This document shows positions 6,664-27,068 of a DNA stretch of 64,000 nucleotides, piece by piece; positions within the stretch are counted from its first letter, which is position 1; each line of letters opens with the position of its first letter. This DNA is from Escherichia phage vB_EcoM-G28, in the sequence record NC_054916.1; one strand, written 5' to 3'. A model generated the notes under the pieces. It was not told where the DNA came from. It saw only the letters and a list, made by a program, of their open reading frames with translations, and searched no databases. The translations under genes were made by a program, and so were the position numbers.

Positions 6664-7352
6664 ATTATAAATTAATATATGATAATTTAATTAATAGAGC
6701 CCAGAATCGGGCTCGCCTTAATGGATACACTGAAACACATCATATAATTCCTAGATGTATGGGTGGTACAAATGATAAGTGTAATTTAGTAGAACTAACG
6801 GCTGAAGAACATTTTATAGCCCATAAACTTTTAGCTAAAATTCATCCAAACCATTACGGTATAATTAAAGCTGTTATATGTATGGGGATGAATTCAAATA
6901 CTCATGAAAGACACGTCAATAAATCTTACGCATGGGAACGTCGTAAAATGGCAGAACTTCAATCCGGCGAAGGTAATCCATTTTACGGAAAACACCATAC
7001 GGAAGAACATAAACAATATATGTCAAAACTCATGAAAAGTCGTCCAATTACATGGGGAAATAAAATTAGTAAAACTAAAAGAATGAACCCAACGAAATGG
7101 ACTGAAGAAGCTAAAAGATTACATTCAATCAATCAATCGGGTAAAAATAACGGCATGTATGGAAGGAAACATTCCGCTAAATCTATTCAGAAAATTAAAG
7201 ATAACATGCCAGATAATTCAGGAGCTAATAACCCAGCTGCTAAACCTATAGAAGTAAATGGTGTTAAGTATAAATGTATGAAAGATGCTTCTAAAGCTAC
7301 TGGATTATCAATGTACAAACTAAGAATACTTAGAAAAACAGTTAATTTATAA
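6660..7352 (+). CDS. Free-standing HNH homing endonuclease (mob-like), apparent TTG start overlapping the uvsW stop
   Basis: HNH motif HHIIPRCMGG...NLVELTAEEHFIAH; repeated NUMOD-like GxxHxxExK segments; N-terminus paralogous to the nrdA-nrdB HNH ORF. Confidence 0.75.
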   Translation: MNYKLIYDNLINRAQNRARLNGYTETHHIIPRCMGGTNDKCNLVELTAEEHFIAHKLLAKIHPNHYGIIKAVICMGMNSNTHERHVNKSYAWERRKMAELQSGEGNPFYGKHHTEEHKQYMSKLMKSRPITWGNKISKTKRMNPTKWTEEAKRLHSINQSGKNNGMYGRKHSAKSIQKIKDNMPDNSGANNPAAKPIEVNGVKYKCMKDASKATGLSMYKLRILRKTVNL

Positions 7353-7377
7353 GGGCTTCGGCCCTTTGGAGAAAAAG

Positions 7378-7611
7378 ATGTTACTAGAATTTAAACAATT
7401 TCTTTATGAAGCTTCTATTGATGAATTTATGGGTAAAATTGCCTCTTGTCAAACATTAGAAGGTTTAGAAGAACTTGAAGCTTATTATAAGAAAAGAGTC
7501 AAAGAAACTGAATTAAAAGACACTGATGACATCTCTGTGAGAGATGCTTTGGCAGGAAAAAGAGCTGAATTAGAAGATTCAGACGATGATGAAGTAGAAG
7601 AAAGCTTTTAA
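7378..7611 (+). CDS. UvsW.1-like small acidic protein (76 aa from ATG at 7378)
   Basis: ORF with GGAG Shine-Dalgarno 7 nt upstream; position downstream of uvsW. Confidence 0.6.
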   Translation: MLLEFKQFLYEASIDEFMGKIASCQTLEGLEELEAYYKKRVKETELKDTDDISVRDALAGKRAELEDSDDDEVEESF

Positions 7612-7666
7612 ATTAAAAAAGGCCCAACCGAAAAGGAAGGGCCAAAACTATAGACTAAAGGTCACA

Positions 7667-7834
7667 CTATAGCAAAAGTTGTGTTTCATTTAATTGTTCT
7701 TCCGAACTTTCTGAAACTGGTAGTTCTTTAATGTAATTATAGCAAGGCCCAGGATGTACAGGACCTTTGTCTGTTTCAACAACCAATGCAGAATCGATTG
7801 GAGTTTTACAGACAACACAAATCTTATCTGACAT
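7667..7834 (-). CDS. Small protein with CxxC...C motif (uvsY.-2 position), 55 aa
   Basis: Hand-translated ORF below the 60-aa cutoff of the ORF track; preceded by late promoter element. Confidence 0.45.
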   Translation of the reverse strand: MSDKICVVCKTPIDSALVVETDKGPVHPGPCYNYIKELPVSESSEEQLNETQLLL

Positions 7835-7859
7835 GATTGTCTCCTCTGAATTATATATC

Positions 7860-7867
7860 TATTTATA
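7860..7867 (-). promoter_or_regulatory. Late promoter element TATAAATA (minus strand)
   Basis: Reverse complement of TATTTATA about 25 nt upstream of the 55-aa ORF. Confidence 0.4.
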
Positions 7868-8087
7868 CAACTCTCATATGCATATCAATGCCCATATCTT
7901 TAGAATAAAAATATTCATCAAGATATCCAGCAAATTTTCCTTTAATATAAAGGACATCTTCACCACATGGATGGTCGGCCAGGATACGAATATCCTGACG
8001 CTTAAGATTATACTTTTTCATTAAGAATTGAATTTCCGTTTCAAATTCTTCTTCATAATTAAAAGCATCATCAATGTTATATCTCAT
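7863..8087 (-). CDS. Hypothetical protein (uvsY.-1 position)
   Basis: 74 aa ORF directly downstream of uvsY. Confidence 0.55.
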   Translation of the reverse strand: MRYNIDDAFNYEEEFETEIQFLMKKYNLKRQDIRILADHPCGEDVLYIKGKFAGYLDEYFYSKDMGIDMHMRVV

Positions 8088-8500
8088 TATTTTCCAGCCT
8101 CAAATGCCCGCATGTCTTGAATATGCTTAATAGCAAATCCACGTGATTTAATAGCATCAAGAGCTCCGCTACAGAAATCCAATAAAATCCCCCAATACTG
8201 TAACGATGTATCAACCTTTAAAACATCCTTATCAGCTGATAGAACTGTCTTCATTTCTGATTTCTCGTAACGATCCATACTAAATTCATCACCATCTCCT
8301 CGTCCCGAGTAGTAGTCTAATTTAGCTTTAAGAGCAACTTTTTTCTGTGCTTCAATTCTAAGCATTTCCTTTTTAATACTTGAATGCTTATTAAGCCATT
8401 TACTATATAACATCACATTATTAGCTGCTTCATACTGTAATTTAGTCGAATCTATAAACACATCTTTCTTCAATTCTTCTTGAAGATCTTCTAATCTCAT
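8087..8500 (-). CDS. uvsY: Recombination mediator UvsY
   Basis: 137 aa; sequence recognised as T4 UvsY (MRLEDLQEELKKDVF...). Confidence 0.92.
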   Translation of the reverse strand: MRLEDLQEELKKDVFIDSTKLQYEAANNVMLYSKWLNKHSSIKKEMLRIEAQKKVALKAKLDYYSGRGDGDEFSMDRYEKSEMKTVLSADKDVLKVDTSLQYWGILLDFCSGALDAIKSRGFAIKHIQDMRAFEAGK

Positions 8501-8540
8501 ATTGTTCTCTATTCAATTGTTATTGGATGGACTTAGATTC

Positions 8541-8567
8541 ATTATACCACGTTTATACGTGAAGCAT
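8541..8567 (-). promoter_or_regulatory. Middle (MotA-dependent) promoter: MotA box TGCTTCA and -10 TATAAT upstream of uvsY
   Basis: Minus strand reads aTGCTTCA - 12 nt - gTATAAT. Confidence 0.5.
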
Positions 8568-8965
8568 TATACTCTGTTACTGGAAGCCAGTTGTAGTTTT
8601 ATCTGCTCAATATCATCAGGATTATCGATGACCGAAAAGCGTATTTCTACTATCAGAGTATAATCATCATAAACTGGTATTACATTAACTGCTAATTTAT
8701 CAATACGTGGCTCATAGTTTCTTACTGCGCTTTCGATGTTACGCTCAACAGTATCAGCAGTAAGAGGAGTCATATTCTCAAAAAGTTGATCAGATAAATC
8801 GCATCCAAATTCTGGGTCAAACGGTCTCGACCCTTTTCTGGTTGTGATAATTCCCAAAAGGCTATTTTTAATTGACCTTAATCCAAGAGATCTAGAAACA
8901 TCTTTGTCCCAATCCATTTTCATTTCTGGGTCAATGTCAGAATAAAGCTTATTAATATTTGCCAT
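8567..8965 (-). CDS. 25: Baseplate wedge protein gp25
   Basis: 132 aa, synteny and sequence. Confidence 0.88.
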   Translation of the reverse strand: MANINKLYSDIDPEMKMDWDKDVSRSLGLRSIKNSLLGIITTRKGSRPFDPEFGCDLSDQLFENMTPLTADTVERNIESAVRNYEPRIDKLAVNVIPVYDDYTLIVEIRFSVIDNPDDIEQIKLQLASSNRV

Positions 8966-16231: not shown

Positions 16232-16261
16232 ATTATAACACAACACGAGGGACTTGTAAAC
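16232..16261 (-). promoter_or_regulatory. Early sigma70-type promoter (-35 GTTTACA, 17-nt spacer, extended -10 TGTTATAAT)
   Basis: Read on minus strand; part of a 54-bp sequence repeated identically at 31723 and 32074. Confidence 0.55.
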
Positions 16262-18318
16262 TATATTTTGAACTTTTTAGACATTTCGTTGATGTTAACC
16301 AAAGAAGCCAAGATTTGAGAAACTTCGTTTTCCTCTTCTTTTGATTCTTCTACAAGGAATTGATTAAATCCAGCCATTGGACGAACTTCACCAGTTTCCA
16401 TTAGATGGTCGCCATCATATACCGATTCTTCTAACTGTTCAGAAGGAGGAACGATTGTGCCTTCGATTAGATACTTGTTATAAGCAGTTTCTTTCATCAT
16501 GTACGTACTCACTTTATTAATCTTCAGCAAAATTCCACGCGGTAGAATAACTTCAGCTTCTGATGGAAATCCTGATAAATGACCTGGAACGATAACTTTG
16601 ATTCGCTCAGCTCCTTTAATTACCATACCCGCGCTAGTTTCAGCATCTTCATTGGCATACGTAGAATGACTGCCCATATGCATCAAATCTTCAGCATCAA
16701 CTGAACCTTCTCCTTCACCAGAAAATACTGTGCCGGAATCATCTAGAGCCATATAGTTTTTACCATACTCACCGAAGATATTTGGTTTAAGCGATGTGGA
16801 TACGAAGTTCTTGAAGTAGAACATTTTATTTTCAATATTATGACGTAAAGTTTTAAAGGTAACTTCTTGTCCACGGTAAAGTGTAGTTCCTGGAGGAAGA
16901 ACTGATCCTTTGGCAAAGGCAGAATCCATTGTCTCGATGTGTTTAATAGCTCGTTCCATATATTCTTCACGGGTAGAATCCGGTTTACCTAAAAGGAACG
17001 AGTTCATTTCAACATATGAATCTGCACAATAATCTTCAATTACATCAGACTCAGCTTGAGTTAATCCTTTTGGAGTTACTTCAGTACTTGCATATTCATA
17101 CGCTTGAGAAGCAGACTCATTAATCAATTTATAAATGCCATTCATGACAAATTGAACAATAGCTACCTTTTCATCTGGTGTAGCTTTAGAACCTTTAACT
17201 AAATCATTGACGATTTTCTTAATAACATCAAAGCTATTAGAAATATTAATGTCAGCAAGATCACTTAAAATTTTATCAGTTTTATAATCAAAAAATTCTT
17301 TATTCTTTAAATATTCTTGAGAACCTTGATATGATATATCGCTCTGTAACTTGATAGATGGATCACGTAAACGCGCATGAGCCAATGCAATATGATTTCG
17401 GAAGCTTTCTAATTCATAATCGCTAGATTTAAAACGGGAAGCACTTCTCATACCACCGATAGCTCCTTTGCTGAAGTTTGAACCAACCTGAATAACGCCA
17501 GAGTTCATTGGTCCTTCTGCTTTATATACCGGAACTTTAGATTCAAACTCTTGATATTTCTTAGCAGCGAAGCTATCACCCTGAAGTGAAGCATCGACAG
17601 TAGAATATTGAGCTTGTGCTGCTAATCGACGACTAATTTTAGTTTTCTGAATAACAGCTTGATCCGTACGCTTATCATTTTCTAAAGCAATAGAAGCAGC
17701 AACAGCAACAGCTTTAGGAACAGCATTGCCTGTTTTAACATCTACATAAACATCACCAACCTTTGATTCAACTTTTGTGAATAACTCAGTTGAAATAGGA
17801 GGTACACCTGGAATGTCTTCTAAATTGGCATTTTTACGGTAAACCATAATATATGCATATTTCTTATCATAGTCCCAGATTTCCTTTAAAAGAACATATC
17901 GACCTGCTCCTTTAGTACGTACTAAACGGTCGGCAATAACTTGCATTTGACGAGCTGCACCGTTTGTTTTACTCTTTAGTACGCGGAATAAGCATGCGTC
18001 AATTTTGTACTGTTTCATTGTCTGAAGAGCAGTATCAAAAACCGCATTAATAACACCAATTGGATTTCCACCCAAGTTTTTAAGTTTAACGAGCGATAGT
18101 TTCTCATTAACACCTATCATTACGATATGCATCATTTTATCGCCTGGCTTAACGTTTTTATTTGTATCACCGCCAGAGGTGTATGTACAAAATCTAAATC
18201 CAGGAAGCACGCTTTCTTCACCGGCTTGAATAGCAAAAATTTGAGGTATTTTATGCTTAGGATTTAAGTTAACAACCGGCGCCGAAGCGCCGTCAAATAA
18301 TTCTGTAATAAGTTCCAT
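16261..18318 (-). CDS. Alt-family ADP-ribosyltransferase paralogue (685 aa)
   Basis: R-S-E ART motifs (LYRG, VSTSL, EAEVILPRG); N-terminus MELITELFD shared with adjacent paralogue. Confidence 0.8.
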   Translation of the reverse strand: MELITELFDGASAPVVNLNPKHKIPQIFAIQAGEESVLPGFRFCTYTSGGDTNKNVKPGDKMMHIVMIGVNEKLSLVKLKNLGGNPIGVINAVFDTALQTMKQYKIDACLFRVLKSKTNGAARQMQVIADRLVRTKGAGRYVLLKEIWDYDKKYAYIMVYRKNANLEDIPGVPPISTELFTKVESKVGDVYVDVKTGNAVPKAVAVAASIALENDKRTDQAVIQKTKISRRLAAQAQYSTVDASLQGDSFAAKKYQEFESKVPVYKAEGPMNSGVIQVGSNFSKGAIGGMRSASRFKSSDYELESFRNHIALAHARLRDPSIKLQSDISYQGSQEYLKNKEFFDYKTDKILSDLADINISNSFDVIKKIVNDLVKGSKATPDEKVAIVQFVMNGIYKLINESASQAYEYASTEVTPKGLTQAESDVIEDYCADSYVEMNSFLLGKPDSTREEYMERAIKHIETMDSAFAKGSVLPPGTTLYRGQEVTFKTLRHNIENKMFYFKNFVSTSLKPNIFGEYGKNYMALDDSGTVFSGEGEGSVDAEDLMHMGSHSTYANEDAETSAGMVIKGAERIKVIVPGHLSGFPSEAEVILPRGILLKINKVSTYMMKETAYNKYLIEGTIVPPSEQLEESVYDGDHLMETGEVRPMAGFNQFLVEESKEEENEVSQILASLVNINEMSKKFKI

Positions 18319-18321
18319 GAT

Positions 18322-20418
18322 TTATCCTTGAACGAACTTGTAAGGCATGTTTGTAATATCTATGCAAGACGCAATAATTCCAAGAGATGATTCTACTTTC
18401 TGTTTAACATTTGATGAAACAAATGATGCAAAGTCAACTCTGTCTTCTATTTCAATATCACCTGTCATTGCAATTACTTCACCAGTTTCCATTAGACGGT
18501 CACCGTCATAAATTACTGATTCGGTGAGTTCTTCCGTAGTCATAACTTCAGCTTGAATGAGTTTTGTATTATTAGATGTTGTTCCGTCATTATTAGAAGC
18601 ATCAGTTATTTTATTAACTTTGACCATCAATCCGCGTGGTAGAATAACTTCAGCTTCTGTTGCTATTCCGAGACTTCCTGGATATACAACATTAACTTTA
18701 TGAGCTCCATCAATTGCCCATCCTATTTGAACTTTAACGTATTCAGGATTTTCTTTATACGCTCTTATTTCGTTTGGATTAATAGTTATTCCTTCTTCAT
18801 TTTTATCAACTGTTAATTCATTACGAGCTTCTGGTTCTAAAAGACCAATGCCAGCATGTGTAATTCCAAAACGCCCAAAAATGATAGGAGTTAAAGAAGT
18901 AGATACAAAATTTCTGAAATAGAACACTTTATTTTTAACTAGCGCTTCGTATATAGGAGCAGTCATACTTTGAGCACGATAAACTGTAATGCTTTCTGGT
19001 ATACGGTCACCGTTTTCAAAAGCTGAATCTAAGTTATTTATAGCAGATTCAATTTCTTTTTCACTCATTACATCATATCGTTCTGGATTGTAGCGTCCTA
19101 AAAGAAGATTATTGATGTCAGTATATCCTGAACCGCAATACTCTCTAATGCCGCGCTTTTGTGATGGAGTATATTTAGAACCATCACGGGCAATAGTAAT
19201 ATCAATCATTGGACCTGCACCAATTCCAGAAAAACTATAAATCATTCGTTTGATGAATTTAGTTTTTGCTGCGTTCCAGGAATTTTTAGTTATTTCTTCC
19301 CAGACTTCATCTGGCTGCCCTTTACGAGTTTTATTATGTTTATCAAGCCAAGTATCTTTATATTCTTCAAAGAATTTATTAATAGCTGCTGCATACTTCT
19401 CTAAACATTTTATTGAAGTAGTTGGTTCATTTTTGATCGCGTTAAAAATTACGTCTTTAATTTTTTCAGAAACTTCATTAACCTCACTTTTTGAAAAGAA
19501 TTTATAATCATAGTGAAGTTCATCTGCAGTTCCTTCGGCAATAATTTTTGCTGCTTTAGTTTTAGAAGCTAATGAATTAATTCCAAGCTTCATTTCTTCT
19601 GCTTCGGGAATTAAAGGAGCGGTAGCAGGTTTATTGAAATTAGCTGCGGTAGATTCATACTTCTGGAATAATTCGCTTTCAAATCTAGAAGATTCCAATG
19701 ACTGACTTTGCGCAATTGCTCTACGGGAAATTTTAACTTTAACGATTACAGCTTGGTCAGAACGTTTATCATTTTCTTGCGCAATAGATGCAGCAATTGC
19801 CTCATTTTTAGTTACTTGAGCTCCAGTATCTTTATTGATATAAACATCGCCGACTTTCGATTCAACTTTAGTAAAGAGCTCGGTACTAATTTCCGGAACT
19901 CCTGGAATGTCTTCTAGTGATACATTTTTGCGATGTATAAGAATATATGCATACTTTTTATCATAATCCCAGAGTTCCTTAAGAAGGACGTATCTGCCAC
20001 CTGAACGACTACGGATAAGTCTATCAGCAATAACTTGAATTTGTTGAGCTTGACCAGCAGTTTTAGACTTAAGAATACGGAGCATACAGGCATCAATTTT
20101 ATACTGACGCATCGTCTGCATTGCAACAGTAAAAACTGAATTGATATAATTAATTGGGCTTGGACCAAGACCTTTTAATTTGGCAATTGAACCTTTAGCA
20201 GTTAATGTAAAAGGAACAATATGCATCATTTTATCGCCCATTTTTAAATCGCGATTAGTATCACCTCCAGATGTATAGGTACATAAACGAAAGCCCGGTT
20301 GTTCAATTGCATCATCAACGTGAACTGAAAAAATTTGTGGTATTTTCTTCTTTGGATTTAAGTTTGTAATCGGAAGAGTAGTATCTTCGTCAAATAATTC
20401 TGTAATGAGTTCCATCAT
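18322..20418 (-). CDS. alt: Alt ADP-ribosyltransferase (698 aa), copy adjacent to the ligase side
   Basis: R-S-E motifs (VYRAQ, VSTSL, EAEVILPRG); late promoter upstream; synteny next to gene 30 region. Confidence 0.8.
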   Translation of the reverse strand: MMELITELFDEDTTLPITNLNPKKKIPQIFSVHVDDAIEQPGFRLCTYTSGGDTNRDLKMGDKMMHIVPFTLTAKGSIAKLKGLGPSPINYINSVFTVAMQTMRQYKIDACMLRILKSKTAGQAQQIQVIADRLIRSRSGGRYVLLKELWDYDKKYAYILIHRKNVSLEDIPGVPEISTELFTKVESKVGDVYINKDTGAQVTKNEAIAASIAQENDKRSDQAVIVKVKISRRAIAQSQSLESSRFESELFQKYESTAANFNKPATAPLIPEAEEMKLGINSLASKTKAAKIIAEGTADELHYDYKFFSKSEVNEVSEKIKDVIFNAIKNEPTTSIKCLEKYAAAINKFFEEYKDTWLDKHNKTRKGQPDEVWEEITKNSWNAAKTKFIKRMIYSFSGIGAGPMIDITIARDGSKYTPSQKRGIREYCGSGYTDINNLLLGRYNPERYDVMSEKEIESAINNLDSAFENGDRIPESITVYRAQSMTAPIYEALVKNKVFYFRNFVSTSLTPIIFGRFGITHAGIGLLEPEARNELTVDKNEEGITINPNEIRAYKENPEYVKVQIGWAIDGAHKVNVVYPGSLGIATEAEVILPRGLMVKVNKITDASNNDGTTSNNTKLIQAEVMTTEELTESVIYDGDRLMETGEVIAMTGDIEIEDRVDFASFVSSNVKQKVESSLGIIASCIDITNMPYKFVQG

Positions 20419-20656: not shown

Positions 20657-22116
20657 AAACCAGTTACCTCATGAAAATCACCAAATACATCTTCGAATGT
20701 ATTAGCTTTAGTTTTATCTTCGCGTAAACGAATCGCAATCGGAAGAAATAATTTAACGTAATCAGTGCGGCCATCAGATTTTAACCAACCGTTGCATTCG
20801 CACTCTAGAATTTTTCCAATATAATAATTTTGGTTTTCCATAATGCGAGTACGGTCAAGTTCATGCGATTTTACACCGGCTTTATCTTTTAAGCCTGAAC
20901 CAGCATTTACTTTAATTTTTCCACACTCTGACTCAAGAATAAATCCACCTGCTTTAGTAGGGTCTTTACGGTGAGGATAAATTCCTACAATTTTTAAATC
21001 AACATCAATTACTTCTTTAAATTTATAGAGATTTTTTGAACGAGCATTTTCCCATAATCCATCGATATTTTTGAGAATAATACCTTCAAGACCTTGGTCA
21101 ATATACTTTTTATAAATTACCTTAGCTTCATCTAGGTTATTTACTACCTGGTTTTCAATTAAAATTACTTTATCATATCCAGATGTCATTTGTTCTAGTT
21201 TAGAAAAACGTACATCATATTTCAAACGAAATGCAGGAAGACCGTATATTTCTACCAACGGTACATAATCCCAGACCTGAAACTTCATGCATTGAGCTTC
21301 TTTTTCAGAAATGGTTCCTTTTAAGGATTTATTGGCGATTCCATTAGAAGTAGTACGAGATTCCGCTACTTCGGCGAATTCTTTAGCTTTACTAATTTCA
21401 GGATAAGCATCAAAAAGAAAATCTAGTCCTTCTGGTTCCTTTTTAACTTGCTCATGGTATACCAATTCGCCATCAATTAACACACCTTCTGGATGAATCT
21501 GGCGGGCTTCAGCAGTCATTTTGATTAACTCTTCCTTAAGAAGATCTAATCCTAGATATTCATTACCAGCTCGCGATAAAAGACGAACATCATCTAATTC
21601 ATCGCCTCGGACTTCAGCAAAACACCGAGCTCCATCTGCTTTTAACTGCGCAAAAGCTGGAAACTTGATATTCTTACTAATGCCTTTTTCATCATAAGAA
21701 CTTGCCAGCATTTGAGGTTGTTCAGGAATTAAACCCGGCCAAACTTTGTTTGCAATAGATACTGAAGCACCACATTCAAGGTCTCGCATCATAACTCGAC
21801 GCAAAACTTCAACATCATCCTTTTTACCATCGGTGATATATCCAGTTAATTCCTCAATTGCTGCATTGCCAGTTAATTTCCGAGTAGCTAACGTGAATTC
21901 AATGAAGTCAAGCATATCGGTAATAGTCAGCATTCCAAAACTCTGGGTAGCAATACCAGGTTTAGGCCATTTCTTGATATAATACTGTAACCCACGAGAA
22001 TAAGTCAGACGATATACTCGTTTAAGCAATTCATTATCTTTATTCTTTTCAAGAATTGCTTGCTTCTGTTTAGTTGATCCAATAGATGCTATTTCATTCA
22101 GAATTTTAAGAATCAT
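20653..22116 (-). CDS. 30: ATP-dependent DNA ligase gp30
   Basis: 487 aa; adenylation motif LKADGAR; sequence recognised as T4 ligase. Confidence 0.95.
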   Translation of the reverse strand: MILKILNEIASIGSTKQKQAILEKNKDNELLKRVYRLTYSRGLQYYIKKWPKPGIATQSFGMLTITDMLDFIEFTLATRKLTGNAAIEELTGYITDGKKDDVEVLRRVMMRDLECGASVSIANKVWPGLIPEQPQMLASSYDEKGISKNIKFPAFAQLKADGARCFAEVRGDELDDVRLLSRAGNEYLGLDLLKEELIKMTAEARQIHPEGVLIDGELVYHEQVKKEPEGLDFLFDAYPEISKAKEFAEVAESRTTSNGIANKSLKGTISEKEAQCMKFQVWDYVPLVEIYGLPAFRLKYDVRFSKLEQMTSGYDKVILIENQVVNNLDEAKVIYKKYIDQGLEGIILKNIDGLWENARSKNLYKFKEVIDVDLKIVGIYPHRKDPTKAGGFILESECGKIKVNAGSGLKDKAGVKSHELDRTRIMENQNYYIGKILECECNGWLKSDGRTDYVKLFLPIAIRLREDKTKANTFEDVFGDFHEVTGL

Positions 22117-22382
22117 TGTTCATCCTTCAGAGTTTGATTTACATCTCTATTATAAATCAATTCATCATTAAGCTCAGGCAAAGACTTATGATATGTAGTT
22201 CTAACTTTATTTCCTTGCATCCAGTGCTTGACGTAAATGAAACCTTGCTCTACACATTTTTTAAAAATTCGTTCGTCTTTTTGAGCACGGAATTCTGGAT
22301 TGCATCTAAAAAATTGATTTACGTGTCCATAATCACGTGTAGTATTACCTTCATTTTCATAAATAGTATGAACAACAAACAT
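22113..22382 (-). CDS. Hypothetical protein (30.1 position)
   Basis: 89 aa ORF, translationally coupled. Confidence 0.5.
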   Translation of the reverse strand: MFVVHTIYENEGNTTRDYGHVNQFFRCNPEFRAQKDERIFKKCVEQGFIYVKHWMQGNKVRTTYHKSLPELNDELIYNRDVNQTLKDEQ

Positions 22383-23218
22383 TAGAATGCTCCTTGAAAA
22401 ATATTATCACCACAAGTAGGTCTATTATACAAATACTCTATGCCGCCGGGTTTAATATAGTTCCATGTCTGAAACGGATGTGTCTGATATGGATGATATG
22501 GATTATAAGGATTAAATCCAGGAGTTCTCCAGGTAGTGTTCCAAGGAAAAGAATCGTTTTTAACCATCTTCTCAATTACATCTTTTATAGCTTTTTCACT
22601 ATCAAAACTTTCTTTATTTTCCTTTGGCGAAAAAAGCTTATTTTCTACATCATTCCATGTATAAACTCGCTGAGCAGTTTTTGGAATATTGTCACGCTCT
22701 CCTCGAGCCATCCAATAAACAGGAACATTTAATATTTCACTCGCGTGATCGCAGTGGTGAGCGAGATCGTCAATATAACAAATTACGTTATATTTCTCTT
22801 TTGCCTTTTTGAACAACTCTTCTTTTGAAGAATCATGACCACACATCAATACTTCTGAGAAGGCACCAGGAAAAAGAGCATTCAAATTAAATTGACGATT
22901 CAGCAGAGCGTCAATAGAATCACCCAGTGCTGTAACAGCTACAAAATTATAATCTTCTTTTAATTTGTTAATTACACACAGGGCATCTTTATATGGAGAC
23001 AAATAGCGAATAAAATCTGAACGATTATACTTTTCGATTAATTTAACACCAAGTTCTTCATCGCAATTAAAGAGCTTACCAGGAGAAATAAATTTTTCGT
23101 CCTGAATCATTTTTAAAATATGTTCCAACGGAAGATTATATTTTTGGGCAAAATAAGGAAGGCCTGATTGCCAGCTTAAACATACTCCATCAATATCAGT
23201 TAAAATAGTAGGCTTCAT
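22382..23218 (-). CDS. HAD-superfamily-like hydrolase (30.2 position)
   Basis: 278 aa; N-terminal ILTDIDGV (DxDG motif I) and downstream YIDDL motif. Confidence 0.55.
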   Translation of the reverse strand: MKPTILTDIDGVCLSWQSGLPYFAQKYNLPLEHILKMIQDEKFISPGKLFNCDEELGVKLIEKYNRSDFIRYLSPYKDALCVINKLKEDYNFVAVTALGDSIDALLNRQFNLNALFPGAFSEVLMCGHDSSKEELFKKAKEKYNVICYIDDLAHHCDHASEILNVPVYWMARGERDNIPKTAQRVYTWNDVENKLFSPKENKESFDSEKAIKDVIEKMVKNDSFPWNTTWRTPGFNPYNPYHPYQTHPFQTWNYIKPGGIEYLYNRPTCGDNIFQGAF

Positions 23219-23679
23219 AGAGAGTCTCTTAATAGGTTTAACACATCAATAAATTCAGCTTCGGTTAGTATTGTATCATCTTTTGTTAGACCACTAGCCA
23301 TGCTGTGCTTCAAAACTTTTCCTTTCGAGGCTTGTAATGCATCGCGAAAGCCCTTGTTTTGAATCGCTGCTTCAAAATATGCATTTGTGTATAATTCTTT
23401 CCACGCTGGGGAGTATCTTGAAAATGGAACTCCAAGCCAGAAGAGGGTTCCGCGGTCCTGAGCTCTTGCATAAGACCTTCCAGCTTGTTGGGCGGCAAGC
23501 CCGGATAACCCAAATATACGACGTTGTTGTTCAACATTTTTCACCTTGCATCCTTGGAGGAATCCTTCAAGACCTCCAAATTGAATACCATCCATAACGA
23601 AAGGCCAATGGGCGAAATTACTTAATGCACATGATGGCCACCTAAAATTACTTCTAATCTCTAACTCAGACATTTTCAA
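23215..23679 (-). CDS. NADAR / YbiA-like (DUF1768) domain protein (30.3 position)
   Basis: 154 aa; LSNFAHWPFVMDGIQFGGLEGFLQ resembles the conserved YbiA core FSNFAAWP..DG. Confidence 0.6.
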   Translation of the reverse strand: MKMSELEIRSNFRWPSCALSNFAHWPFVMDGIQFGGLEGFLQGCKVKNVEQQRRIFGLSGLAAQQAGRSYARAQDRGTLFWLGVPFSRYSPAWKELYTNAYFEAAIQNKGFRDALQASKGKVLKHSMASGLTKDDTILTEAEFIDVLNLLRDSL

Positions 23680-23872
23680 TGCTTATAATTTCAACATCAG
23701 CCCAATGACCATAGTTTGGTAGACGAAATTCAACTGGCCAGTCACTGCCTTTTTCTAATATAATAGACTTAACTTGTGGTTCTTCGTGTTCATCAGTATA
23801 CGGATTTTTATCTGTTACTTTATATGTGACCTTAATGTACTGAATTCCAAAAATCTTATTAATTATATTCAT
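23666..23872 (-). CDS. Hypothetical protein
   Basis: 68 aa ORF in compact minus-strand operon. Confidence 0.45.
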   Translation of the reverse strand: MNIINKIFGIQYIKVTYKVTDKNPYTDEHEEPQVKSIILEKGSDWPVEFRLPNYGHWADVEIISIENV

Positions 23873-24066
23873 ACTAATTCCTTTAATCCGTAGATAGGAG
23901 ATAATTCATCGCCCATACGAAGGTCTTCATTCCCATCTACCCAAGAAACAATATAAGCCTCTTTTACTTGAACATCTCCCAATTTAAATGCGGGTAAAAC
24001 CTTAGAAATTAATCCAGGTATACCAACTCCCTTTAATTCAACGGTTTGGCCTAAAAAGAATTTCAT
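23869..24066 (-). CDS. Hypothetical protein
   Basis: 65 aa ORF, coupled to neighbours. Confidence 0.45.
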   Translation of the reverse strand: MKFFLGQTVELKGVGIPGLISKVLPAFKLGDVQVKEAYIVSWVDGNEDLRMGDELSPIYGLKELV

Positions 24067-24353
24067 TAGAACCTCATCTGAAAACCATGTGATTTAACAT
24101 TACCGCCATTAATATCAGAACTATTAATTTCACGTGCAATTGAGGGATCAATGTCAATTTCGCCATTAAGTTTAATGATAGACAAAGTATCACGCCCATT
24201 TACTGTGCGGAACTCTAAAGGACAAACCACATCAACGTAGTTTTTAATCGATTCACTGGTAGGTTGCAAATGGGCAGGAAGGTCTTTAGGCGCCTTTGAG
24301 AAAACTACTTCACAGAAGTTTTTACGAGTATCAAAATAAGTGGTCATAAACAT
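24066..24353 (-). CDS. Hypothetical protein
   Basis: 95 aa ORF. Confidence 0.5.
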   Translation of the reverse strand: MFMTTYFDTRKNFCEVVFSKAPKDLPAHLQPTSESIKNYVDVVCPLEFRTVNGRDTLSIIKLNGEIDIDPSIAREINSSDINGGNVKSHGFQMRF

Positions 24354-24393
24354 AATATTTTCCTCAGTAGGGGCCGAAGCCCCTCATTTTATT

Positions 24394-24771
24394 TTAAATA
24401 TCAAATTCGTTAAGAACTACATCAAAGATTGCTTCAAGATGATCAGGTTTAGCTCTGTTACTCAGAATATGACGAATCCAAGTTTTAACTAAGAGTTTAC
24501 GATTAGCACCATTCCAGCAAGGATGAGTCCCTAAATCGCGTTGACGGAAATCATCATCCAGAGCGATTTTAAAGTTGGAACCTTCCATCGTGATTGAAAC
24601 CGTGATACCGTTTTCAAATCGTATATAAACGTAATTAGGAGTCATATACTGTTCAATTTCGCATACTGATCCATTTTGATGTTTCCAAAGGCAAATAGTA
24701 TCAATAGAACCTGCAATACCATTAGAAACATATTTACGTTCAAAGTTGATGTAGTTCATTTTATTCTCCAA
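24394..24771 (-). CDS. Hypothetical protein (30.6 position)
   Basis: 125 aa ORF with upstream promoter-like element. Confidence 0.55.
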   Translation of the reverse strand: MENKMNYINFERKYVSNGIAGSIDTICLWKHQNGSVCEIEQYMTPNYVYIRFENGITVSITMEGSNFKIALDDDFRQRDLGTHPCWNGANRKLLVKTWIRHILSNRAKPDHLEAIFDVVLNEFDI

Positions 24772-24826
24772 GATGTTTAATTGCGGTACAGGTATATAAT
24801 ATCATATCCTGTACCAAAGTAAACAA

Positions 24827-25159
24827 TTATTTTACTACTTTCCAATGCTGCATGTCAAGTTTACCAACTTTTTTCATCTTCTCAATTAAGCGTTCGGCAC
24901 GTTGGCGAGCTGTAACATAATGCCATTCGCCTAATTCATTTTGTTCAATTTTTCCAACGATTACTGTATTCAATTCATAAATCCAACCAGTAAAGAAATT
25001 ATGAACTTGAATTGTAAAGGTGAAATCTGTTCCCATACCTTCTGTTGTTTCTACTTCAATAATATCACCTTCAACTGCCATTAAGAACCACATAGTTTCA
25101 TCATATTTACCATTGAAGCATTTAGTTTTAACTGCAGCGTTCAGATTAATCGTTTTCAT
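24827..25159 (-). CDS. Hypothetical protein (30.7 position)
   Basis: 110 aa ORF with upstream early promoter. Confidence 0.55.
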   Translation of the reverse strand: MKTINLNAAVKTKCFNGKYDETMWFLMAVEGDIIEVETTEGMGTDFTFTIQVHNFFTGWIYELNTVIVGKIEQNELGEWHYVTARQRAERLIEKMKKVGKLDMQHWKVVK

Positions 25160-25182
25160 TTTATTCTCCTTTGTTTGTGTAA

Positions 25183-25215
25183 GATAATACTATCACAAAG
25201 GAACCATACTGTAAA
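25183..25215 (-). promoter_or_regulatory. Early sigma70-type promoter (-35 GTTTACA, -10 TAGTATTAT)
   Basis: Minus strand GTTTACA - 17 nt - TATTAT upstream of the 110-aa ORF. Confidence 0.5.
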
Positions 25216-25235
25216 CAACTTTGTGCAATCTTTGG

Positions 25236-25264
25236 AAAATAAAAAAGGACTCCCGAAGGAGTCC
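25236..25264 (-). terminator. GGACTCC-TTCG-GGAGTCC hairpin followed by U-run
   Basis: Hairpin 25247-25264; minus-strand T-run corresponds to plus AAAATAAAAAA. Confidence 0.65.
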
Positions 25265-25269
25265 TCAAC

Positions 25270-25446
25270 TTATGCTTTCTGCTTACCAAAACGAGAAGCA
25301 TCATCTCGAAGAACCGCACGTGCTCGGCGCATGATCTTCTCAACAGTTTGATTGATACGAGAGTTCGACCCACGCTTGTAGCCAGCGCGTTTAGAATCAC
25401 CAACTTTCTTTTCAACTGCTTTCTTTGCTTTAACTTGTTTTGCCAT
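25270..25446 (-). CDS. Small basic protein (58 aa from MAKQVKAKK)
   Basis: ORF-track ORF 25270-25488 trimmed to internal ATG with AGAG SD. Confidence 0.45.
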   Translation of the reverse strand: MAKQVKAKKAVEKKVGDSKRAGYKRGSNSRINQTVEKIMRRARAVLRDDASRFGKQKA

Positions 25447-25459
25447 TATAAATTCTCTT

Positions 25460-25666
25460 TTAAATGAAAATGCAGGACTTATTGGCATTGCCTGCGCAAG
25501 CCCTCAAGGGGAACATAGGTTTTGAATATTTACCGACAGGATAACCATAAACCTCGTCATCATACCACCAAGACTTACACAGATAACACTTTTCTGACGC
25601 ATGATAGTAACATTCAAGAGGTACACCATAAAACTGCCGGGGTCTTAAAACTATAATGATTCGCAA
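25460..25666 (-). CDS. Hypothetical Cys-rich small protein
   Basis: 68 aa ORF; no clear SD, so uncertain. Confidence 0.3.
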   Translation of the reverse strand: MRIIIVLRPRQFYGVPLECYYHASEKCYLCKSWWYDDEVYGYPVGKYSKPMFPLRACAGNANKSCIFI

Positions 25667-25734
25667 ATCAATAATCAGACAGTTCGATGGCTCCTCGATT
25701 TTAGCTCACACTAAGGCAGTGAATCTCCAATAAA

Positions 25735-25983
25735 TTACTTCAATGTTACCACAAAGTGACGAACTGCTTTTCGTGCAGCAGAAGCCAGAGGCTTAGCATA
25801 TTTAAGTTCATCTTTTTCCTGAAGCTCAGCAGCTAATGCAGTTTGAGCAGGATTCAGATGTTTGAAATAACGCAGGATTTCAAGAGCTTCGGCTTCAACA
25901 TCAATAGATGCGCCATAGTTTTCGTGACCATTATTCCATGCGTTTCGTTGCAGTTCAAGAGCGTGTTGTAATTGTTTAATCAT
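25735..25983 (-). CDS. rIII: Lysis inhibition accessory protein rIII
   Basis: 82 aa; synteny next to gene 31. Confidence 0.8.
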   Translation of the reverse strand: MIKQLQHALELQRNAWNNGHENYGASIDVEAEALEILRYFKHLNPAQTALAAELQEKDELKYAKPLASAARKAVRHFVVTLK

Positions 25984-26122
25984 TTAAAAATTCTCGTTAG
26001 AGATTAAAACTCGGTAGTCACGTTCTTCTGAATTTCATCTTCTTTCGACAGATCTCTCAGTTGTAGACTACCACGTAGAATTGTTCGGTTAACTTATTAT
26101 TCCGACACCCAATTCATATTAT

Positions 26123-26130
26123 TATTTATA
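26123..26130 (-). promoter_or_regulatory. Late promoter element TATAAATA (minus strand) upstream of rIII
   Basis: Exact octamer immediately after the gene 31 stop. Confidence 0.4.
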
Positions 26131-26466
26131 TCACTTATAAAGACATGGAATAGCTTTATAATGACATGTTACGAATTTTTGTTTAATTTCTTTTGGCTGC
26201 TTAAGACCCAGAGCTACAAAAGGATGCGGAACGTTTCGAATTTGACCAACTGGCAGAGAAGTCAAATCACCAACTTCGCAGAAACCTTCAGGAACATCAG
26301 GACCAACAGAGTGAACTACACACAGTTCAGGAACTTCACCTTGAACACGTTTACCGATAATAAGTCCTGATTCTGTAACTTCTTCATCACCGGCTTGCGC
26401 AGGTTCAGAAACTAAAATAACATATTCACCGACAGCACGAATTGGTAGCTGTTGTACTTCAGACAT
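26131..26466 (-). CDS. 31: Co-chaperonin gp31 (GroES analogue)
   Basis: 111 aa; sequence recognised as T4 gp31 ([19 protein letters not shown]...). Confidence 0.92.
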
Positions 26467-26496
26467 CGTTTTTCCTTTTTATTAACAGATGAATTA

Positions 26497-26521
26497 ATAA
26501 TAACAAATAATTCTTAAAGCA
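26497..26521 (-). promoter_or_regulatory. Middle promoter: MotA box TGCTTTA and -10 TATTAT upstream of gene 31
   Basis: Minus strand TGCTTTA - 12 nt - TATTAT. Confidence 0.45.
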
Positions 26522-26522
26522 T

Positions 26523-26831
26523 TTATTTACCAATAAATTGAAGCAAATGCTCAACTTTCATACCATTAACGGAAATCAACTTATCAATAGAAAAACCTCG
26601 CCATGCACCAAGCTCAACATCAAATACTGGAATCATATCAGTAGATTCTTTCCGAGTAGATTCAGTCAATTTACCGGTTTGCATGGTTGGCATAAAGTCT
26701 GCATCACGAGTACCTTTCATAGTACGAATAGTACCATCAGACTTTTCAAAAACTACGTTTGAAATACCCATGGACAATTTAGTTTTCAAAATTTCACGAA
26801 TTGCTACTTTCTGTTCAGTCGTCAGTTTCAT
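26523..26831 (-). CDS. Hypothetical protein (31.1 position)
   Basis: 102 aa ORF. Confidence 0.55.
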   Translation of the reverse strand: MKLTTEQKVAIREILKTKLSMGISNVVFEKSDGTIRTMKGTRDADFMPTMQTGKLTESTRKESTDMIPVFDVELGAWRGFSIDKLISVNGMKVEHLLQFIGK

Positions 26832-27068
26832 TTATTTACCTATCACAGTTTTAATATGAGTTGTTCCACGTTCTTTAAGGGTGGAAAGTAATTTTTGGCA
26901 TTTTTCTAAATCAGATTTCCAACTATATGGTCTATCAATACTAGTCCAATCAGTTTTATAATACTGTTTCCATTTAGAGAAAAAATATTTCTTAAACTCT
27001 ACAGCAAATGAGATGTTCTCGTTAGAATAAGAACTAATTGCTGTGAGCTTTACCAAACGAAATTTCAT
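26832..27068 (-). CDS. Hypothetical protein (31.2 position)
   Basis: 78 aa ORF. Confidence 0.5.
   Translation of the reverse strand: MKFRLVKLTAISSYSNENISFAVEFKKYFFSKWKQYYKTDWTSIDRPYSWKSDLEKCQKLLSTLKERGTTHIKTVIGK

Follow-up and report, generated by a model that had tools for sequence, protein, structure and literature searches.

[quoted passage not shown] The purified T4 protein, AdfN(T4), strips ADP-ribose from DarT1-modified DNA, and is weakened by each of three changes, E36A, K43A and a C-terminal truncation (PMC11825919). Its specificity is narrow. In an independent in vitro study the T4 enzyme hydrolysed guanine-linked ADP-ribose (guanine-ADPr) and not thymine-ADPr (PMC11125620), and cytosine-ADPr is not removed by it either (PMC12945103). 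A transposon screen in T4 gave a concordant picture, insertions in 30.3/adfN having no effect on K-12 but disappearing completely on DarTG1 hosts (bioRxiv 10.1101/2025.11.20.689424). AdfN(T4) does not, on the other hand, rescue uninfected Escherichia coli from DarT1, and rescues non-T-even phages only in part (PMC11825919), which implies that its action in vivo needs an additional factor or context specific to T-even phages.

Related domains are found in cellular toxin-antitoxin systems and in housekeeping proteins. One position at the last strand tells the subfamilies apart: members of the YbiA family have Glu there, those of the BC4488/DarG1 family have Asp, and phage NADARs have His (PMC11125620); in the literature, the His of phage NADARs (H123) is the structural counterpart of E125 in the Phytophthora enzyme PnNADAR. 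The roles of a lysine, K95 in the NADAR of E. coli C7 and K50 in PnNADAR, have also been described (PMC11543638). In the published phylogeny, the group of AdfN(T4) is the closest to the NADARs associated with DarT1 (PMC11825919).

Here we analyse a gene of this kind in a 64,000-nucleotide stretch of Escherichia phage vB_EcoM-G28 (sequence record NC_054916.1), hereafter the window. An initial annotation, made from the sequence, had proposed a NADAR (YbiA-like) protein in the gene 30 accessory cluster and a counter-defence against DarT-like toxins. We estimate at about 93% the probability that the gene is adfN and codes for a 152-aa single-domain NADAR of the phage type, an enzyme that would remove guanine-ADPr and thereby oppose DarTG1. 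The function of this gene is already known, having been published through the T4 orthologue, so that the initial guess was correct and not new.

Identity and genomic context

Over 24 kb, the window shares about 96.5% nucleotide identity with many Tequatrovirus genomes, T6 included, which are its nearest records. The gene lies between 30.4 and 30.2, within a same-strand run of small genes upstream of the DNA ligase gene (Table 1). The T4 reference record has the identical order, namely 30, 30.1, 30.2, 30.3 (with an internal 30.3'), 30.4, 30.5, 30.6 and 30.7, and the order 30.4-30.3-30.2 upstream of ligase gene 30 is also present in RB69 and RZ. The initial placement of the locus in the gene 30 accessory cluster is thus right when the order of ORFs is compared with the T4 annotation.

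Over its full length the product is identical to T4 gp30.3 at 150 of 152 residues (99%), the two differences being Q22H and I125M. Proteins that are 100% identical occur in phages vB_EcoM_Shinka and SHFML-26, and the Shinka record already carries the label "NADAR domain containing protein". Most T4-like records in GenBank label 30.3 "hypothetical protein". Relatives are abundant: a tblastn search with the protein found matches in 1509 phage records, and a profile run against 1.84 billion cluster representatives returned 1671 clusters at E<=0.001. The product matches the Pfam family PF08010 (Phage_30_3) with E=7e-70 and 233 bits (cut-off 36), and is assigned in PHROGs to phrog_652, of unknown function; an NCBIfam search with the product returned no family. 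Given the PF08010 match, the identity with T4 and the 1509 phage records, the ORF is real, far beyond chance, and by its sequence the gene is the orthologue of adfN (T4 gene 30.3) in a T4/T6-like Tequatrovirus.

The surroundings of the family vary among lineages. In some of them, relatives of adfN lie in clusters of tRNA genes or have NUDIX and Thg1 genes as neighbours. As a check for His-type NADARs located beside DarT1 in bacterial genomes, we looked at the one relative on very large contigs (P0042, 308-424 kb): it lies amid dense, small, unannotated ORFs of phage-like appearance, with no toxin neighbour.

Start codon and overlapping genes

The reading frame had been reported as a 154-aa ORF opening with TTG. 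The ORF exists, and contains within its product the string LSNFAHWPFVMDGIQFGGLEGFLQ quoted at the time, but translation probably does not begin at the TTG (23679). We place the start at the ATG at 23673 on the minus strand, 6 nt downstream, which gives a protein of 152 aa. Three observations underlie this choice: read from the ATG, the gene measures 459 nt and is exactly colinear with T4 gene 30.3 (NP_049816); the stop codon of 30.4 shares nucleotides with this ATG (ATGTCTGA); and the published catalytic positions E36 and K43 then land on a Glu and a Lys. The TTG was rejected as a start, since the listing picks the first possible start codon, whereas the T4 annotation and the published numbering both use the ATG. 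The stop-start overlap between 30.4 and adfN suggests translational coupling of the two genes.

The internal, out-of-frame ORF 30.3' annotated in T4 is present here as well. All seven of the nucleotide differences from T4 that fall within it change the amino acids of the 30.3' product and leave those of 30.3 as they are, and its ATG is lost in phage RZ. Judged by this substitution pattern and by the loss of the start in RZ, 30.3' evolves as a non-coding sequence, and we rejected it as a second constrained product.

The downstream neighbour, gp30.2, gave no match in a Pfam search. Ten lineages were checked for its linkage to 30.3: the two genes adjoin in five of them (T4, RB69, RZ, JC221 and an Acinetobacter phage) and not in the other five (KaAlpha, KVP40, Phi1, RSP15 and a metagenomic contig set, the last counted as one lineage with four loci). 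Because 30.2 is absent beside 30.3 in half of these lineages, the linkage is not obligatory, and an obligatory partnership of gp30.2 with AdfN was set aside.

Table 1. Coordinates of adfN, its functional elements and its neighbours in the window
Feature	Coordinates	Strand	Basis or remark
ORF as listed, 154 aa, first codon TTG	23215..23679	-	ORF listing of the window
adfN / gene 30.3 CDS, 152 aa + stop	23215..23673	-	T4 colinearity, PF08010, AF2 model
Two extra codons TTG AAA of the 154-aa ORF, probably untranslated	23674..23679	-	
ATGTCTGA junction, adfN start overlapping 30.4 stop	23666..23673	-	Sequence and ORF ends
ATGA junction, adfN stop overlapping 30.2 start	23215..23218	-	Alignment reads ...CTCTATGAAGCC...
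Glu36 codon GAA, putative catalytic glutamate	23566..23568	-	Invariant in 71 relatives; E in 246/252 domains
Lys43 codon AAG, putative phosphate-binding lysine	23545..23547	-	K in 245/252 aligned domains; aligned to YbiA K
His123 codon CAC	23305..23307	-	Invariant in 71 relatives; H in 244/247 aligned domains
Predicted C-terminal helix, residues 138-151, needed for full activity	23221..23262	-	AF2 model; intact here; RB69 T insertion falls just upstream
30.3', internal out-of-frame ORF annotated in T4, 75 aa	23310..23537	-	Present here
Gene 30.2, 278 aa, downstream neighbour	22382..23218	-	N-terminal DIDGV resembles HAD motif I
DNA ligase gene 30, 487 aa	20653..22116		
Alt-type ADP-ribosyltransferase gene	16261-18318	-	PF03496, E=4e-20
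Alt-type ADP-ribosyltransferase gene	18322-20418	-	PF03496, E=1e-37
Best sigma-70-like promoter match, TTGACA-18-TAAAAT, upstream of the 30.7-30.3 run	24829..24858	-	Consensus match only

Sequence evidence for a NADAR domain

The assignment to the NADAR superfamily cannot be read off a direct database match. A search against the Pfam NADAR model (PF08719, DUF1768), which the initial annotation had put forward as a check, gave no match even at E<=10, the product falling in the separate family PF08010 instead. A single-sequence search of the PDB likewise returned no NADAR chain, its sole match, to an ATP pyrophosphatase at E=0.6, being a chance one. As no direct match to PF08719, to an NCBIfam family or to a NADAR chain of the PDB is available, membership is argued from profile, fold and residue evidence.

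The family as a whole provides the link that the single sequence does not. Of 71 aligned members, 25 match PF08719 at E<=1, with a best value of 1.5e-7, all below the gathering score; examples score 21-27 bits, where the cut-off stands at 35.1. In multidomain relatives, the matches to PF08010 and PF08719 cover the same residues. Furthermore, the 71-member family profile finds E. coli YbiA (2b3w) with E=0.006, over YbiA residues 29-83, in an alignment that covers the motif SNFA..P....DG......E..FQ..K already noticed in the first reading. The resemblance to the YbiA core reported then is therefore real, but weak at the sequence level, where only the family profile aligns.

Together with the fold and the catalytic residues described below, the matches of the relatives to PF08719 and of the profile to YbiA bear out the proposed NADAR membership. 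They support placing the product, on sequence and model, in a phage-type subfamily (PF08010) of the NADAR superfamily with a His at the last-strand position. Since the profiles, the fold and the residues all point to a NADAR, we did not take the missing PF08719 match as a refutation.

Predicted fold and active site

An AlphaFold2 (AF2) model built on an alignment of 70 sequences reached a mean pLDDT of 93.4 and a pTM of 0.89, and DSSP assigns to it six helices of at least 7 residues together with short strands. When this model was compared with the PDB using Foldseek, the best match was YbiA (2b3w, E=1.3e-4, TM 0.68), followed by the Phytophthora NADAR in complex with ADP-ribose (PnNADAR, 8bau, probability 1.00) and by the DarG1-type NADAR of Geobacter lovleyi (8bat, probability 0.95); all remaining matches had probabilities of 0.04 or less. 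The comparison with YbiA that had been recommended for the predicted structure thus came out clearly, the top three PDB matches being the three solved NADARs. The modelled product has the YbiA/NADAR fold, a helical core with small flanking beta-hairpins.

The residues expected of an active enzyme are found at the corresponding places. In the family profile alignment, E36 aligns with the E of the YbiA segment SEHYFQAQK, and its counterparts are E43 of the Phytophthora NADAR and E88 of the E. coli C7 DarG1. The Glu-Lys spacing is of 7 residues in the product, as it is for E43/K50 in PnNADAR and for E88/K95 in C7 DarG1. In the model, H123 comes immediately after the last strand (residues 120-122). 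The conservation of these three positions is given in Table 1.

State of the allele and proposed mechanism

The RB69 record carries the T insertion that creates a TGA, and a DNA alignment shows the window to be free of this insertion and to read like T4. Both of the differences from T4 fall at sites that vary across the family, position 22 being P, A, S, K, E, H or Q and position 125 being I, M, V or L. Because the RB69-type insertion is absent and both differences lie at freely varying positions, we predict that the window carries a functional AdfN equivalent to that of T4.

The mechanism is transferred directly from the 99%-identical T4 protein, activity and phenotype both being those of the T4 literature. 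In a host with DarTG1, DarT1 would ADP-ribosylate guanines in the phage DNA and block its replication. AdfN would be made from the early or middle gene run upstream of DNA ligase and would hydrolyse the N-glycosidic bond between ADP-ribose and guanine, so that the DNA is restored and replication proceeds. The protein would in this way behave as an orphan antitoxin that mimics DarG1, and would be specific for guanine-ADPr, sparing thymine- and cytosine-ADPr. The timing of adfN expression is what we infer, since a promoter and terminator scan of positions 22000-27000 gave counts not above the shuffled expectation.

A counter-defence against DarT, as advanced in the initial annotation, has been demonstrated experimentally for the 99%-identical T4 protein (PMC11825919, PMC11125620, bioRxiv 10.1101/2025.11.20.689424). 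The target can be refined: given the specificity of the T4 enzyme, it is DarT1, which modifies guanine, and not DarT2, which modifies thymine.

The restriction of the full action of AdfN(T4) to T-even infections could conceivably reflect a partner or a substrate context provided by this region, either the coupled, HAD-motif gp30.2 or a His123-type site adapted to glucosyl-hydroxymethylcytosine DNA. Whichever it is, guanine-ADPr deposited by further toxins besides DarT1, on RNA as well, may also be a substrate of the enzyme. We regard this extension as unlikely, and advance it tentatively.

Alternative functions

The window itself contains another potential source of ADP-ribose adducts. Some 3-7 kb downstream of adfN, and in the same orientation, it carries two full-length genes for Alt-type ADP-ribosyltransferases (Table 1). 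The enzyme might accordingly, as the initial annotation also considered, serve to reverse or tune the phage's own ADP-ribosylation, by Alt, ModA and ModB, of the host RNA polymerase and other proteins. The Alt and Mod enzymes of T4 modify arginine side chains. A survey has noted that the NADAR genes of T4-like phages are expressed early along with ADP-ribosyltransferases (ARTs) (PMC9503650). However, every NADAR activity tested, that of the T4 enzyme included, concerns nucleobase-linked ADPr (PMC11125620, PMC12945103), and deletion mutants show a phenotype specifically on DarTG1 hosts, the gene being dispensable on K-12 (PMC11825919, bioRxiv 10.1101/2025.11.20.689424). We therefore hold such self-turnover to be very improbable.

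Slightly less probable again is a main role in degrading soluble immune signals or toxins derived from ADP-ribose, or by-products of RNA repair, in place of DNA adducts. This role was proposed from genomic context for phage NADAR and Macro domains generally (PMC9503650), and the relatives located in tRNA clusters or near NUDIX and Thg1 genes would fit it. The proposal is, however, older than the experiments, in which G-ADPr on DNA proved to be an in vitro substrate of the T4 protein, and DarTG1 the defence for which the phage specifically needs it (PMC11125620, PMC11825919, bioRxiv 10.1101/2025.11.20.689424).

Finally, a housekeeping role like that of YbiA, as an N-glycosidase of riboflavin-pathway intermediates, to which the top structural match and the aligned N-terminal motif might point, can be dismissed almost entirely, as the YbiA family is defined by a last-strand Glu where the product has His123, the AdfN(T4) group is nearest to DarT1-associated NADARs in the published phylogeny (PMC11825919), and a phage has no evident need for riboflavin-pathway activity.

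We thus retain the removal of guanine-ADPr from phage DNA, directed against DarTG1, as the most probable function of this gene. The finding brings no new biology of its own. Its value lies mainly in a correct annotation, which designates a characterised anti-defence gene and predicts growth on DarTG1 hosts: the intact allele, with E36, K43, H123 and a full C-terminal helix, leads us to predict that the phage is resistant to DarTG1, which is relevant to host range and to the choice of therapeutic phages. Two questions for the field, the T-even-specific requirement and the role of the His substitution, lie beyond sequence analysis.

Comparison with known systems

Other T-even proteins also protect against DarTG systems, namely AdfA (T4 gp61.2) and AdfM (T4 Tk.4) (PMC11825919, bioRxiv 10.1101/2025.11.20.689424). 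Both are unrelated to AdfN: AdfA is not a NADAR, and AdfM is a macrodomain directed against DarTG2 and its thymine-ADPr. AdfN(Bas32) and AdfN(Bas60), from T5-like and Vequintavirinae phages, are likewise orphan anti-DarTG1 NADARs specific for guanine-ADPr (PMC11825919). They differ in belonging to other NADAR clades, independently acquired, and in needing no further phage factor (PMC11825919).

E. coli YbiA (2b3w), the founding member of NADAR/DUF1768 (PF08719), is the best structural match and has the N-terminal motif in common with the product. Their sequence identity is only 18%, YbiA has a Glu in place of the product's last-strand His, and it differs from the phage protein in its housekeeping role, related to riboflavin, and in its place in a LexA-controlled operon (PMC11125620).

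DarG1 is the NADAR antitoxin associated with DarT1; it belongs to the BC4488 family and is represented by the proteins of E. coli C7 and of G. lovleyi (8bat). It has the fold and the Glu-Lys pair spaced by 7 residues in common with the product, and the removal of ADP-ribose from guanine in DNA is a reaction that it has in common with AdfN according to the T4 protein data. The differences concern the last strand, with an Asp in DarG1 and His123 in the product; the architecture, DarG1 bearing an N-terminal extension where the phage product is limited to the core domain; and the genetic setting. DarG1 is encoded beside DarT1, whereas the phage gene is an orphan: in the window, no DarT gene is adjacent to 30.3, whose neighbours are 30.4 and 30.2. 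Moreover, AdfN(T4) cannot replace DarG1 in uninfected cells (PMC11825919). Judged by its neighbours, by His123 and by its restriction to the core, the product would work like DarG1 and is not a member of the DarG1 subfamily.

The closest system is AdfN(T4). The window gene belongs to another Tequatrovirus genome and differs from it by Q22H and I125M, the activity data being those of the T4 and T2 alleles. In all the other respects compared, which are the length of 152 aa, the position between 30.4 and 30.2, the residues E36, K43 and H123 and the intact C-terminal helix, the gene is like that of T4.

Mosaic conservation of adfN relative to RB69

Conservation between the window and the related phage RB69 is strongly uneven around adfN, the orthologue of T4 gene 30.3 that encodes the phage-type NADAR protein gp30.3. 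When RB69 positions 7131-8889 were compared with window positions 22113-23872, gp30.3 was found to share 95% identity, whereas its neighbours are far more diverged (gp30.2, 67%; gp30.1, 58%; gp30.4, 48%). The pattern suggests that the adfN segment either was exchanged recently or is under much stronger constraint.

Disrupted alleles, internal ORF and domain architectures

Besides the frameshifted gene of RB69, further natural disruptions of adfN are present among database relatives of the window's gene at 23215-23673 (P0014, P0049, P0093, P0015 and P0016). They comprise deletions, in which the 3' portion of 30.3 is joined to 30.7, 30.8 or 30.4, and frameshifts, which change between the frames of 30.3 and 30.3', and every one of these alleles lacks either the E36/K43 pair (catalytic Glu and phosphate-binding Lys) or the C-terminus.

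As for 30.3' itself, all seven nucleotide differences between the window and T4 within this internal ORF are synonymous for the 30.3 frame and non-synonymous for the 30.3' frame, and its ATG is missing in the Gaprivervirus RZ. Although present in the window, the ORF evolves unlike a coding sequence.

Other architectures of the gp30.3-type domain were observed in seven metagenomic proteins (P0105, P0107, P0141, P0153, P0176, P0207 and P0233): tandem copies, and fusions to BspA-type leucine-rich repeats, prolipoprotein diacylglyceryl transferase (Lgt), an FtsW/RodA-like membrane domain or a GDSL lipase. Such arrangements look cellular rather than phage-like; alternatively, they could be gene-calling artefacts.

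Genomic context and comparison with T4

The stop codon of adfN partly overlaps the start codon of gp30.2 (ATGA). The gp30.2 N-terminus, MKPTILTDIDGV, is similar to HAD phosphatase motif I, and one GenBank record names the protein a putative phosphatase; a search of gp30.2 against Pfam returned no match at E<=1. Two intergenic hairpins in the region are terminator-like by consensus match only.

Features of the window in the context of adfN
Feature	Position	Strand	Description
Alt-type ADP-ribosyltransferase	16261-18318	-	685 aa; full-length; PF03496 match; tandem with next
Alt-type ADP-ribosyltransferase	18322-20418	-	698 aa; full-length; PF03496 match
gp30.2	22382-23218	-	278 aa; N-terminus MKPTILTDIDGV
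30.3'	23310-23537	-	75 aa; out of frame within 30.3; annotated in T4
Hairpin	24369-24384	+	between 30.7 and 30.6
Hairpin	25245-25266	-	GC-rich, then T-run; between 30.9-like and 30.8

For T4 gp30.3, the methods of PMC11125620 give a construct of residues 1-208, which disagrees with the 152 aa encoded by T4 gene 30.3. Identity between the two Alt-type paralogues of the window is 41%, and that of the upstream copy to T4 Alt is 70%; the annotations of several relatives also list two ADP-ribosyltransferases. T4, in contrast to the window with its two full-length genes, carries a single alt gene and the remnants alt.-1 and alt.-2.
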